Source: an uncultured virus (IMG/VR IMGVR_UViG_3300042691_054280) (lineage: Duplodnaviria; Heunggongvirae; Uroviricota; Caudoviricetes; Crassvirales). Taken from it: a stretch of DNA of 64,000 nucleotides. Under the pieces are notes generated by a model. The model did no database searches and was not told the DNA's origin. It worked only from the letters and a program-made list of their open reading frames with translations. Where the stretch lies: IMG/VR virus record IMGVR_UViG_3300042691_054280, one strand, 5' to 3'. The translations under genes and the position numbers were made by a program. Below are positions 55,846 to 63,245 of the stretch, piece by piece (position 1 is the stretch's first letter; the number at the start of each line of letters is the position of its first letter).

Positions 55846-56181
55846 TCAGCTTGTGTATTTACCGAGAATGTAAGAGCGCTGAATTTGGGCATACTTTCGC
55901 TCTCCGATAATAATGACTGTCGCTTCTGCATTTGGATGCACCTTTACGGTGTCGCCAGGCTTGTAAAGAGGATATGAATCCTGGCCAACTGCCATTACTT
56001 TCAAATCGTTGCTCTGTCGTGCTACGATGTGCTCCGGAATTACAAGGCCGGCAGCAGTCTTTTTTTCTTCAGGGTGCTCTACAACCACATGATATGGATC
56101 AGGAATGTATCCAATTGTGGTCAGATAAGATTCTGGGAATTCTGAAGCTTGAACTCCAACGTGTTCTTTTTCGTTTGACAT
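55846..56181 (-). CDS. groES: GroES/Cpn10-like co-chaperonin
   Basis: P...HVVVE, mobile loop EKKTAAGLVIPE, VMAVG, KPGDTV and ILGK; start re-assigned to MSNEKEH. Confidence 0.8.
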   Translation of the reverse strand: MSNEKEHVGVQASEFPESYLTTIGYIPDPYHVVVEHPEEKKTAAGLVIPEHIVARQSNDLKVMAVGQDSYPLYKPGDTVKVHPNAEATVIIIGERKYAQIQRSYILGKYTS

Positions 56182-56199
56182 GTGTATGGTTTTGCATGT

Positions 56200-56230
56200 C
56201 AAATGTAAGAAGACTTTTTATAAAGTCAAG
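56200..56230 (-). promoter_or_regulatory. full Bacteroidota sigma-A promoter for the groES-terL operon
   Basis: Minus strand CTTG-19 nt-TACATTTG. Confidence 0.75.
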
Positions 56231-59437: not shown

Positions 59438-61056
59438 CGCTTCTGATTTAGTGACACTCCGAGCATGTGAGCTGTCCAGTTTTTTGGAGTCGTTCCAACT
59501 AGACTACTTATCCTTATTTTAGGATAGCCGGCAAAGTTGTTTGATACTCTTGTAAACCTGTAAACTGCAGAGTATGTAATTCCGTTAGTAGAACTGAAAA
59601 ACGTCACGTTTCCATTATTGCCATGGTTCCAGATCCCTAGATACTGTTTTGTAGTAGTCGCTACTGCAGTTACCACGTTTACAGCCAATCCTCCACCGGT
59701 ATTAATGACGTCAATTTCCCACACGTTTGCAAACGTAGCAAATGCTGGAGTTTTCCATATGTAACCATTCCCTACCCAACTTCCAGAGTTACTCTCAAGG
59801 CCTACCCCACAAACTACATCTTGCAAAGCAGTTGGAGTTGGGGTGGCATCTACAATGGCCAGCATAACCATCGGGAATTGACCATTCAAGTTTAAAGCAT
59901 TGTTACCACTTCCATGTCTGATTGCCATTCCCCCTACTGTATTACCAGTTACAGTTGAACCGGTGCTTAACTGCACACCACCCAGATCAAAGTTTCCAAG
60001 GTTACCGCTACTCTGTATTCCGGAAGCAGCTCCGGAAGATATCCAAGACATGTAGGTAGTACTGAATACAACAGTAGGGCTTACCCTGTTCTGAGGACCT
60101 GAAGTAAAGTGATCCACCACATCCAAACCTCCCCAATTACCATAAGACATTTGACTCCACCTGGTGCCGTTGTACAAAAACGTGATGTCCCGGCCAGGAA
60201 GTAAGAAGTAAGAAGTTTGATGTTGTAGCCTGAACCTGTTAGCTGCAGTACTCGTTGGAGAGTCGTGATCAATAATCAGCAGCTGATCAGTTGCCGCATT
60301 GACAATTGTAACCATTTGGCCGGCAACCCCATTTGTCAATCCCCCGATCGACACAATGTTATTGGCATTGGTCGGAGTAATCCGTATGACTTTTGTAATA
60401 GTCGTAGTTCCTGGCCAACCAGCTGGTGTGTAATTATCTTCCCGGGCATTCGCTGTACTCACCGAAATTACACCCGGGTCCGTAACCACAGTCAGATCAG
60501 CCAGAGTCAGCGCTCGAAATGTTGGGATTGCTGCACTACCTGAGCTAGGCCCTGCAAACACAAGATTGGCTGCCTGTGTATTGAGCCCAATTGTAATAGT
60601 CCCTGATGTGCTAATTGGATTTCCGGCAAGACTGAAAATAGACGGTACTGCCAAGTTTACACTTGTAACCGTACCCGTACCACCCGTCGGAAAAGTCTGC
60701 AGATTACCAGTCCCATCAATGTATTGTGCACTAGTGCCGGCTCCGGTAACCGTAAAAGTCCCTGATCCTACAACCGGACTGCCCACAACTGTAAAAGCCG
60801 GTGGAAGACTCAATCCGATCGTTCCGCCGCCTCCTGAAGAGTTTATTGTCAGGGTCCCATCCGAATTCTGAACAAGAGTTACATTACTACCGGCAACCAA
60901 CAAATCAGTCAAGTACTTGAACACAAACGTTTTTGGACGTGATGTCTTCGAGTAAGCCGTAAGTATTTGATTGTGCCGAATGTTATCCGGACGATCGACA
61001 TTAAAGTTCGACTTATCCAGATCGATCAGATCTTTCAGGCTCAGCGATTTTGCCAT
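59434..61056 (-). CDS. fibre-like structural protein
   Basis: 540 aa, Gly/Ser/Thr-rich; GTVTSVNL...GNPISTSGTIT...VFAGPSSGSAAIPTFRAL fibre repeats; beta-rich C-terminal domain. Confidence 0.7.
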   Translation of the reverse strand: MAKSLSLKDLIDLDKSNFNVDRPDNIRHNQILTAYSKTSRPKTFVFKYLTDLLVAGSNVTLVQNSDGTLTINSSGGGGTIGLSLPPAFTVVGSPVVGSGTFTVTGAGTSAQYIDGTGNLQTFPTGGTGTVTSVNLAVPSIFSLAGNPISTSGTITIGLNTQAANLVFAGPSSGSAAIPTFRALTLADLTVVTDPGVISVSTANAREDNYTPAGWPGTTTITKVIRITPTNANNIVSIGGLTNGVAGQMVTIVNAATDQLLIIDHDSPTSTAANRFRLQHQTSYFLLPGRDITFLYNGTRWSQMSYGNWGGLDVVDHFTSGPQNRVSPTVVFSTTYMSWISSGAASGIQSSGNLGNFDLGGVQLSTGSTVTGNTVGGMAIRHGSGNNALNLNGQFPMVMLAIVDATPTPTALQDVVCGVGLESNSGSWVGNGYIWKTPAFATFANVWEIDVINTGGGLAVNVVTAVATTTKQYLGIWNHGNNGNVTFFSSTNGITYSAVYRFTRVSNNFAGYPKIRISSLVGTTPKNWTAHMLGVSLNQKR

Positions 61057-61060
61057 ATTG

Positions 61061-61068
61061 CAAATCTA
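61061..61068 (-). promoter_or_regulatory. -7 box (TAGATTTG), 4 nt before the first late-module ATG
   Basis: Minus strand reads TAGATTTG-CAAT-ATG. Confidence 0.7.
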
Positions 61069-61376
61069 CGATGTTCTTTCCTTCTCGGGCACACCTCTCC
61101 CCTTGGGATTTTTGAGGTTTCACAACAGATTTTGTAAGGTGCCGTTTTGAGCCTTCGAGGGGGCATTTCTGTCAGCCTGTAGCCTTATTCCCTCCCACCC
61201 TACTATACTATTGCCGTTTTTGCTCCTATCGGGGACAACTTCCAGTAACTATGTAGGTAAAACGTTACCGGTAGAACCCGACTTCTGCCCCTCTAACTAC
61301 CTGACTGGCCATCAAGGGGGATCGATTGGAATCGGAAGCAGTGCCAAATATACTCCAAAAAATTTCTCGAGCAACA

Positions 61377-61407
61377 CTTGACTTTCAAAAAATATTGATT
61401 ACATTTG
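61377..61407 (+). promoter_or_regulatory. full Bacteroidota sigma-A promoter
   Basis: CTTG-19 nt-TACATTTG; closely resembles the groES promoter. Confidence 0.75.
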
Positions 61408-61410
61408 TAT

Positions 61411-61481
61411 CCCACTCTACATATACGGCCATCGTATGTGAACCGAACTAGCCCTGAATCAGCCCGGGGCTTTTTCGTTTT
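61411..61481 (+). ncRNA. candidate ~70-nt two-hairpin small RNA
   Basis: Promoter, then hairpin CATATACG-GCCAT-CGTATGTG, AACCGAA linker, and terminator AGCCCTG-8nt-CGGGGCT-TTTT; no ORF. Confidence 0.65.
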
Positions 61482-61657
61482 CTGGACTTTCCATTCCGGC
61501 AAGGCTTTCAGAGAACTCACCTCCCAAAATTTTCCCCAAAATTTTTTTCGGAACCGGTTTTGAAAATTTGATCTGTGGTTTTGAGTGTGGGTACCTACGT
61601 ATTCAAAGACCCCGGCTAACAAGGGAGCGGGCAAACATCCCCCGTTCCCAACAAACC

Positions 61658-61813
61658 ATGTGGACAGTTTTCCTCTCGCCGAAAACCGGCATTCTCATCT
61701 TCACTCAACGTCAATGGACCAAGGACGGTCCCGTTGAGTCCAAGATCTACGTCGATCCCAACGACAAGGATCGAGCAAAGGCCGAGGCCTTTGCAGCGAC
61801 GCTCAACCCATAA
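61658..61813 (+). CDS. 51-aa protein, first gene of the + strand early-type block
   Basis: ATG after an A/C-rich leader (ACAAACC); GC3-rich codons; flanked by hairpins. Confidence 0.55.
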   Translation: MWTVFLSPKTGILIFTQRQWTKDGPVESKIYVDPNDKDRAKAEAFAATLNP

Positions 61814-61814
61814 G

Positions 61815-62460
61815 GGTTGGGCTTCGCCCATTGGGGGCAAGTCTGAATTAACTACGGTTAGTTCAGGCTTGCTCTTTGTCCTAGAACTGTAGTACAAGAG
61901 ACTAGGGTAAGCTCCCTTACACTTGTTGTACAAAGTGATACAATTACATTGGCTTATTGTTATGATTGTTTGTGAAGGCAATCATCAATGTAGTATTACA
62001 GTTCACTCTTCTGCCTGGCTTGGGTGAGTACTTTGTATTCACTCAAGCTATGGCATTTGGGTTCTGAGTTAACAACTGAGTTAGCTTCCGAGTTATATCG
62101 TGAGTTAAGTTGTGAGTTGACCAGGAATCCCTTCACCATTTTCGAGGTCTCAGCCATACCTCGAATTCCAAATGGTTATTCTATGGCACTTTAACTAACC
62201 TAACCAATAGCCTGGTGGCATCACTGGCAGTTTTCAACTCAGCCTCGAGCAAGCTGAGCCATTTTACACAAACTACTAGCTCTCTAATTAACTCTTTAAC
62301 CTCTCACAGATGAAAGAACTTATTAAAGTCTGTGACCATGGCACAGATCGGGATAGCTGGTAGTCCTTACCCAAACTCTATCACTCAGCATAAAGCAGAT
62401 TCTCCGCGATCTGTGTCTCGTTAATAGCCCGAGATTATGCTGGTGATAGAGTTTACTTTG
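61815..62460 (+). ncRNA. candidate structured RNA tract
   Basis: At least six long stems whose mismatches are G-U on the + strand; cUACGg and GUGA tetraloops; no ORF of 60 aa or more on + in the track. Confidence 0.5.
62064..62120. repeat. five GAGTT(A/G) cores at exact 12-bp period
   Basis: GAGTT at 62066, 62078, 62090, 62102 and 62114 with variable spacers. Confidence 0.9.
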
Positions 62461-62482
62461 TATTCCACTTAACTTCAATTAC

Positions 62483-62821
62483 ATGAAACCACGGTACTGG
62501 AAATACTACTGCATTTTAAACGGTGATTCAGAGGTAAAAGTGTATCGACATATAGTTGAAGGCAACAATGTCAATCATCTTAAACCTTTGAAAGGTGCAA
62601 ACAGACAAGCAAAAGAGCTTGTAACAGTGATTACTGTCAAAGTTCCCATGGAGACATTTGAAGCCTTCAAAGAAATGTTTGACTCTTCTGGACTTCAAAC
62701 AGATGATCGGTTTTTCACTGCATCTTTTGGTCTGCATAAAAGGCCAATTGCAATGGAGTGGGAAAAAATCAAATCTGAAATTCTACAAAAATTTCCTTTA
62801 ACACCAATTCTTACATCATGA
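62483..62821 (+). CDS. hypothetical early protein
   Basis: 112-aa ORF with an AT-rich leader. Confidence 0.6.
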   Translation: MKPRYWKYYCILNGDSEVKVYRHIVEGNNVNHLKPLKGANRQAKELVTVITVKVPMETFEAFKEMFDSSGLQTDDRFFTASFGLHKRPIAMEWEKIKSEILQKFPLTPILTS

Positions 62822-62952
62822 AAAAACTCATCCTTTTGGTACTCGTTGCTATCATGGCTACATCGTGCGCTACTACTAAGCGTGGCTATGATTACAAAGC
62901 GCACCAAAAACGTTCTCAGCAATTCAAGAAGCATGCTGGGTGCTGGCATTAA
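62818..62952 (+). CDS. 44-aa lipoprotein
   Basis: MKKLILLVLVAIMATSC lipobox; ATGA overlap; not in the ORF track. Confidence 0.7.
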   Translation: MKKLILLVLVAIMATSCATTKRGYDYKAHQKRSQQFKKHAGCWH

Positions 62953-62981
62953 TCTGCTTCTCAACCAAATTCCATCTCACA

Positions 62982-63245
62982 ATGAAAAAGATTTTGCTCT
63001 TTCTTCTGCTTTTGGCCGGCATGGCCTCTTGCAACATTAATCCGGAACGTCCTGTCCGGATTCTCTACACAGGTGAAAAAGCCTTTGTGGAATTGCCTCA
63101 CGATTTGTATCGGCCAACCGATACATTAGTTGTGACCTATGATGTCCCACTGGACAAATGGAAAGTGGACACTTACTGGCAAAAATTTGCCGGTAACCGC
63201 AATCCAAGCGGAACGTGTTTCAAAGCAGTATTCATCCAAAACTAA
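62982..63245 (+). CDS. small lipoprotein
   Basis: MKKILLFLLLLAGMASC lipobox; start re-assigned. Confidence 0.75.
   Translation: MKKILLFLLLLAGMASCNINPERPVRILYTGEKAFVELPHDLYRPTDTLVVTYDVPLDKWKVDTYWQKFAGNRNPSGTCFKAVFIQN

Follow-up and report, generated by a model that had tools for sequence, protein, structure and literature searches.

A compact non-coding unit, made up of a Bacteroidota-type promoter, a short hairpin and an intrinsic terminator, lies in the strand-switch region of an uncultured crAss-like phage, and we read it, with a probability of about 0.5, as a gene-less cargo cassette occupying a recombination-prone slot, its terminator shielding a conserved element of the rightward genome arm (block B). 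Next to the unit, on the opposite strand, begins a second and broader subject of this analysis, a conserved structured RNA (block A) that likely represents a new RNA family of Crassvirales and Bacteroidota mobile elements, as judged from comparative sequence analysis. Throughout, the window denotes the whole 64,000-nt stretch of DNA analysed, from IMG/VR record IMGVR_UViG_3300042691_054280; the coordinates of all main features are collected in Table 1.

A promoter, hairpin and terminator between two gene arms

The window belongs to a Crassvirales phage, and PHROG profiles recognised in it the major head protein, portal, large terminase and rIIA/rIIB; the placement is backed by the TerL, portal and MCP matches. 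Its terminase is ~40% identical to the terminases of gut crAss-like phages, with none of the 164 GenBank phage records that it matched reaching 60% identity. DNA nearly identical to positions 60000-63000 was present in 20 public DNA runs, which come from 10 studies and mostly carry a freshwater metagenome label; none of the 22 runs found is recorded as RNA. Searches for tRNA and tmRNA genes in the window found none. Since the structural genes occupy the minus strand (9772-61056) and plus-strand genes resume after ~61650, the flagged stretch falls in the strand-switch region. The first gene on the minus-strand side encodes a 540-aa protein that is poorly conserved among relatives and is likely a receptor-binding or depolymerase protein; the -7 box of this gene, TAGATTTG at 61068-61061 (-), ends 4 nt before the ATG.

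A first reading of the unit, made from the sequence only, had proposed a full host-type promoter, and this description holds well. Both boxes agree with the Bacteroidota sigma-A consensus, which is given as TAnnTTTG at -7 and a TTG-type -33 element (PMC7366714, excerpt), and transcription is predicted to start near 61414-61416. The 16 core bases of the promoter recur at matching spacing exactly once more in the window, as a twin placed 2 nt upstream of the ATG of a Cpn10/GroES-like gene. By our own arithmetic, a second exact 16-base match is expected ~3e-5 times in 128 kb of two-strand sequence; the chance figure of the motif tool covers matches with up to 3 mismatches (mean 1.36; two or more in 39 of 100 shuffles) and does not address exactness. 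TAnnTTTG boxes 2-4 nt upstream of the ATG were seen in at least six minus-strand genes (61068, 56207, 52105, 49343, 14370 and 9721), a gap which implies putatively leaderless or near-leaderless mRNAs for the structural genes. For Bacteroides thetaiotaomicron, only ~3.7% of 5′ UTRs are listed as shorter than 10 nt (PMC7366714, excerpt).

Downstream of the predicted start site, the proposed 8-bp hairpin with its G-U pair is indeed present (hairpin 1). It is single in the window at up to 3 mismatches and single in a 47.7-kb identical IMG/VR record, and as DNA it forms an imperfect palindrome. Equally present is the proposed intrinsic terminator, whose 7-bp stem with five G-C pairs encloses an 8-nt loop and is followed by TTTTCGTTTT to position 61481. 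A generic terminator scan of the window gave no enrichment (3 found versus 3.2 expected); a stricter scan returned 8 sites versus 2.05 ± 1.43 in 20 shuffles, and the terminator of the unit is among these 8, together with sites at operon ends. Folded as a 72-nt RNA, the plus strand reaches -25 kcal/mol (z -4.59; none of 200 shuffles as good), and the minus strand of the unit gives z -0.42. The minimum-energy fold is also the centroid and accounts for 33% of the ensemble. A pseudoknot between the linker and CGG at the hairpin loop, which had also been suggested, found no support: the CGG spans two stem bases and one loop base instead of lying in the loop, and in the minimum-energy fold the CGAA of the linker is taken up by the U-tract.

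The RNA from this unit is predicted to be ~65-70 nt long and non-coding. Three mechanically called ORFs overlap the unit, the longer two at 61405-61563 (+) and 61293-61634 (-). In a natural strain with ~99% identity, a 1-nt insertion at 61525 would put both out of frame, and we therefore consider the ORFs across the unit not credible; no ORF was found between the predicted start site and the terminator, so that the original claim of a unit free of ORFs stands. Over positions 60900-61900 this strain differs from the window by 10 substitutions and the one insertion, none of which falls inside 61378-61481, a constancy that says little, since at this divergence a stretch of 105 nt should carry only ~1 change. 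Of the 10 substitutions, five are clustered at 61681-61696, inside the first rightward ORF.

Table 1. Position and strand of features in and around the strand switch; positions are those of the window unless a locus is named.
Feature	Position	Strand	Remarks
First minus-strand gene, 540 aa	59434-61056	-	phage-depolymerase C-terminal beta-sandwich domain, E 5.7e-07
Twin promoter	56200-56229	-	TTGACTTT, 14-nt spacer, TACATTTG; before Cpn10/GroES-like gene 55846-56202
Block A, ~250-nt structured RNA	~61338-61085	-	adjoins unit, opposite strand
Block A helix H1	61319-61314 with 61293-61288
Block A helix H1b	61309-61307 with 61301-61299
Block A helix H2	61282-61277 with 61233-61228
Block A helix H3	61271-61264 with 61249-61242		by eye, window sequence
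Block A helix H4	61214-61208 with 61128-61122
Block A helix H5	61203-61196 with 61141-61134		by eye, window sequence
Block A helix H6	61194-61190 with 61161-61157
Block A promoter, -7 box TATATTTG	61345-61352	-	divergent from unit
Variable cargo slot	61353-61578		between block A promoter and block B; in the window holds only the flagged unit
Unit promoter	61378-61408	+	-33 TTGACTTT 61378-61385; 15-nt spacer; -7 TACATTTG 61401-61408
Hairpin 1	61420-61440	+	61420-61427 pairs with 61433-61440; 8 bp, one U-G pair, GCCAU loop
Linker AACCGAACT	61441-61449	+	in the minimum-energy fold its CGAA is paired with UUCG of the U-tract, lengthening the terminator stem
Intrinsic terminator	61450-61481	+	stem 61450-61456 with 61465-61471; U-tract 61472-61481
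Block B	61579-61645	+	conserved element and covarying-looking hairpin, upstream of first rightward ORF
First rightward ORF, 51 aa from ATG	61659-61813	+	hairpin follows
44-aa basic protein gene	L014:1991-2125; L163:1924-2058	+; -	also in 14 further phage loci

The variable slot and the distribution of the unit

The unit sits between two conserved landmarks, the promoter of block A and block B, and what lies between them differs widely among relatives. We examined 112 slots, that is, the window and 111 relatives, with block B recognised by profile in 35 of the 112; in the 35 loci with both blocks recognised, the distance from the 5′ end of block A to block B ranges from 58 to 1168 nt. The window is the only one of the 112 in which a plus-strand TAnnTTTG promoter is followed by a terminator with no ORF between. 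The slot is empty in four loci (L060, L072, L074 and L080), holds an AT-rich spacer in three (L033, L038 and L040) and a Cys-rich small ORF in four more (L077, L079, L083 and L070). In L054, L014 and L008, which are among the closest relatives by terminase and block A, it contains the gene of a 44-aa basic protein, two small plus-strand genes, which by our reading of the translations appear Ig-like, and a terminator. A further slot (L047) starts in the same way, its contig ending inside the first of the two small plus-strand genes.

The terminator itself links the window to these gene-bearing slots. Its stem, AGCCCUG...CCGGGGCU, aligns with that of the cassette terminator in L008, AGCCCUG...CUGGGGCU, and the distance from terminator to block B is 107 nt in the window versus 97 nt in L008. 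The likeness extends over the 22-nt stem-loop, and the flanks give no convincing alignment.

Block B, on the far side of the slot, has a consensus of roughly TTTTGAGnGTG...CAAAGACCCC, followed by a hairpin, with the first rightward ORF starting 15-80 nt downstream. The window has a single copy of block B, which is 80-88% identical in several relatives by blastn and is kept in relatives with or without cargo in the slot; we presume that it may serve as the promoter or 5′ leader of the rightward arm. As relatives that lack the unit still conserve block B, the rightward genes have no need of the unit promoter, and for this reason the terminator is best read as an insulator for block B. Farther into the rightward arm, non-coding DNA ahead of the gene at 62483 contains a TGAGTTA-type unit repeated about three to five times at 12-nt spacing (62065-62118, +), and TACTTTGTATTC occurs exactly twice, at 62029 and at 62454, the latter copy being 17 nt before the ATG of the same gene.

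The unit proved far more restricted than its surroundings. An exact 30-mer of the unit hit one IMG/VR stretch, 100% identical, and blastn with the unit against GenBank phages returned none. The nearest record (G001) lacks the region of the unit. With the 540-aa neighbour as anchor, three loci were recovered, one identical and two non-syntenic, and no further copy of the unit. Using the terminase as anchor, we fetched 80 of 538 relatives detected, at 62-78% identity except for one 100%-identical copy. When positions 61057-62482 were compared by blastn with 81 TerL-anchored loci (identical copies dropped), alignments covered only query positions 14-318 and 457-589, with nothing over the unit (query 321-425). 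Similarly, a metagenome scan found block A in 16 of 102 stretches. One of these 16 has the unit, once more as a 100% identical copy; in the remaining 15, which do not have it, block A identity is 73% at most. The unit is also absent from the 111 related phage loci. Every copy found is thus 100% identical (one IMG/VR contig and one metagenome contig), and among everything searched the unit was found only in this one phage species or lineage.

Known RNA families did not account for the unit either. The whole window gave 0 matches to Rfam 15 at gathering score, as did both strands of 61000-62100 at E<=10 against 4227 families, presumably including Flavo-1. The likeness to the Flavo-1 motif that the sequence-only reading had suggested is therefore left without a match, and Flavo-1, or any other Rfam family, was rejected as an identity for the unit, no covariance model having matched; the Bacteroidota setting is the sole link between the two. 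Covarying homologs, whose absence had been named beforehand as one of two signs against an RNA gene, were found neither in phages nor in metagenomes nor in the sampled bacteria.

What the unit may be

Phage morons consist of a promoter, a cargo gene and a terminator inserted between conserved genes, as in lambdoid and HK97-like phages. The unit shares much of this layout: it has a host-type promoter and a factor-independent terminator of its own, and it lies at a variable site between conserved neighbours, in a slot whose content varies among syntenic relatives and which their protein-coding cassettes occupy. Unlike a moron, it has no protein-coding gene as cargo, and only ~35 nt of hairpin and linker separate the predicted start from the terminator. 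In the closest relatives, a promoter in the slot precedes one to three small genes, and a terminator follows them ~100 nt short of block B; in the window the slot comprises promoter, hairpin and terminator only. In the cassette reading, host RNA polymerase would transcribe the unit from its strong Bacteroidota sigma-A-type promoter, and the efficient-looking terminator would release a non-coding RNA of ~65-70 nt. The same terminator would stop host-polymerase transcripts of the slot from entering block B and the rightward genes, and the short RNA would be a by-product or a very young, species-specific RNA. Some points weigh on the other side. The terminator link to L008 depends on one short stem-loop, no ancestral cassette can be reconstructed for this lineage, whose nearest block A relatives are only ~72% identical, and the perfect consensus promoter, exact twin of that of the Cpn10-like gene, together with the clean hairpin, argues against a decaying remnant; the unit may be selected for its RNA.

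If so, the unit could encode a functional trans-acting phage sRNA, acting as a regulator or a decoy or by mimicking a host RNA (for instance, a CRISPR-repeat-like decoy), an explanation we consider unlikely, though with several features to its credit. The fold is stable, the promoter has been kept perfect, and the phage recurs in runs from 10 studies, with contigs from four DNA runs showing no change inside the unit where it was covered. Moreover, the unit has a strong promoter of its own and an intrinsic terminator, the two features that typify validated Bacteroides intergenic sRNAs such as GibS; in these, too, a TAnnTTTG promoter and an intrinsic terminator surround a short non-coding stretch (PMC7366714, excerpt). 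GibS, though, is described as conserved within its genus and has mapped targets (PMC7366714, excerpt), whereas the unit, known from sequence alone, has neither a homolog nor a predicted target in the window. Of the features expected of a canonical Bacteroidota sRNA, the sigma-A-type promoter and the 3′ intrinsic terminator are present, and conservation with stem covariation is not; as the unit lacks homologs in everything searched, nothing can covary, and Rfam gave no match. In a k-mer test limited to perfect matches within the 64-kb window, complementarity of the unit RNA was at chance (29 versus 28.5 expected for 9-mers, 7 versus 7.4 for 10-mers and 1 versus 2.0 for 11-mers), and the 32-nt hairpin plus linker occurred at up to 3 mismatches in 0 of 401 sampled Bacteroidota genomes. 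A decoy or antitoxin mimic, as first envisaged, draws no support from these two results. Of the broader proposal of a phage-borne sRNA, the self-contained, non-coding promoter-terminator unit in a Crassvirales strand switch is borne out, and a functional RNA finds no support beyond this architecture.

With 8 nt on either side of a 21-nt stem-loop, the unit presumably resembles class 1 CRISPR repeats and RNA anti-CRISPRs in layout. One could thus imagine that the slot carries RNA payloads too, its ~68-nt product being a species-specific "RNA moron" that would act as a decoy against host defence (an RNA anti-CRISPR or an antitoxin mimic), an idea that we regard as speculative and improbable.

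The remaining explanations place the function in cis. Lambda PR′-tR′, with its 6S transcript, and oop RNA are short terminated phage transcripts, and the unit recalls them by its constitutive-looking promoter, by a terminator within ~70 nt and by a position upstream of a gene block. Modelled on the lambda PR′-tR′ unit or on put-type antitermination, the unit would be a leader or attenuator whose promoter feeds the rightward genes once a phage or host factor overrides the terminator. It does face these genes, ~100 nt before block B and ~180 nt before the first plus-strand ORF. Yet its relatives retain block B and the rightward genes without the promoter-terminator pair, and where they have an equivalent terminator, it ends a gene cassette, not a leader. 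In addition, the single dominant fold (33% of the ensemble) leaves no alternative antiterminator fold, there is no sign of an antiterminator or of read-through control, and co-conservation with downstream genes, another mark of an attenuator or antitermination leader, is likewise missing, all of which makes a leader improbable. We give a similarly low rating to a DNA-level operator, in which the imperfect 8-bp palindrome at ~+6 to +26 would bind a repressor of the slot promoter and the RNA would be incidental. The inverted repeat is well placed for such a role, directly downstream of the predicted start site, but both the window and the 47.7-kb identical record contain the palindrome a single time, so that it belongs to no operator family. 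A looser core, ATACG-N5-CGTAT, has 3 matches at up to 1 mismatch versus 0.6 expected, the other two lying inside genes, and no candidate repressor was identified.

Returning to the cassette reading, the unit taken alone is a modest curiosity, a near-empty promoter-terminator pair at a gene-exchange hot spot of an uncultured freshwater Crassvirales phage. Should it make a working RNA, such slots would be able to carry RNA payloads besides genes.

Block A, a candidate RNA family of phages and mobile elements

Block A, the other neighbour of the slot, is the more widespread element. At the DNA level it is 65-75% identical in relatives whose flanking proteins, where they can be aligned, share only 23-59% identity, and its nearest relatives reach only ~72% identity to the window. 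In all phages with it, block A stands at the head of the structural-gene strand, and a TAnnTTTG-like box precedes it at a matching fixed distance in most of 23 aligned relatives. An iterated nhmmer profile detected it in 151 of 199 sequences including the window (118 unique sequences), and a strict two-part pattern matched at least 119 IMG/VR stretches.

Several lines of evidence point to a conserved RNA structure. Many G-U pairs of block A suit the minus strand only. In a structure-independent MAFFT alignment of 69 distinct 5′ domains (A2; three helices, 15 pairs), 95.5% of cells were paired versus 84.1% in shuffles, and double-change cells numbered 136 versus 47.3, a value that none of 500 shuffles reached; slid controls of this alignment gave 31-53% paired. 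A covariance model matched once in each of 78 sources. The resulting model-fitted alignment of 77 distinct phage and bacterial sequences (A3), although biased towards the structure used in fitting, showed 95.8% paired and 171 double-change cells versus 55.7. RNAalifold on 24 full-length sequences added helices H4 and H6, both with compensatory changes.

Searches for a known identity of block A covered the window, 8 phage relatives and 26 bacterial loci (6 of these 26 also at E<=1) and gave no Rfam match. By eye, parts of block A had looked like conserved regions of RNase P or elements of group I introns; both were rejected, since the helix topology differs and no model matched. Three reference Crassvirales phages, crAss001, cr115_1 and phi14:2, gave no block A match, phi14:2 having been checked by nhmmer on its first 9 kb, by the pattern on its whole genome and by the covariance model. 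This last phage is described as producing abundant long non-coding RNAs of unknown function from long intergenic regions (bioRxiv 10.1101/2020.03.07.982082, excerpt). As non-coding RNAs of Crassvirales, these are the nearest comparison for block A, though not for the unit, and have no detectable relation to it.

In bacteria, the block A pattern matched 116 stretches among species-representative prokaryote genomes, roughly as many as expected by chance on our own arithmetic. Even so, nhmmer supports 64 of these 116 as block A-like, most of them Bacteroidota by record titles. Four of five bacterial genomes tested have a single copy. Among 151 sampled Bacteroidota genomes, two carry block A, one of them being the centre genome (G002), an already known carrier, a count that is a weak lower bound given that only 27 candidates were scored per genome under heavy filtering. 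Two metagenome-assembled genomes contain 8 to 14 copies on separate contigs and are, according to a partial check, probably bins of phage contigs. A bacterial copy compared with GenBank phages by blastn gave nothing.

Bacterial block A is a stand-alone gene, flanked in some loci by ordinary chromosomal genes and in some copies followed by convergent genes. On two bacterial chromosomes, the gene directly downstream of the block A-like RNA encodes an endonuclease, namely a GIY-YIG homing endonuclease (NUMOD) at L377:1649-2302 (-), with a Sak4-like protein nearby, and an HNH endonuclease with NUMOD4 at L359:3011-3535 (+). Other neighbours include an integrase (L309) as well as a primase-like protein and an excisionase-like HTH protein (L343). 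Block A also occurs beside tRNA genes or an array of 12 tRNAs (L316:2281-2616, L320:2466-5030 and L380, binned with bacterial genomes). Spread over at least 151 phage loci and 64 bacterial-genome stretches, several of them beside an integrase or homing endonuclease, and absent from Rfam 15, block A is a testable candidate for a new RNA family of phages and mobile elements, and in this respect of larger value than the unit.

In 16 relatives, the gene of the 44-aa, very basic protein mentioned above lies directly upstream of block A on the same strand. The protein has no Pfam or PHROG match, and its gene is missing from the window; it is a possible protein partner of the block A RNA. Lastly, three of the six near genome-length contigs (at least 90 kb) among the matches listed, L101, L122 and L128 (IMG/VR, 92-100 kb), end within ~500 nt of block A, so that the genome may have a physical end, or assemblies a break point, in or close to the variable slot.
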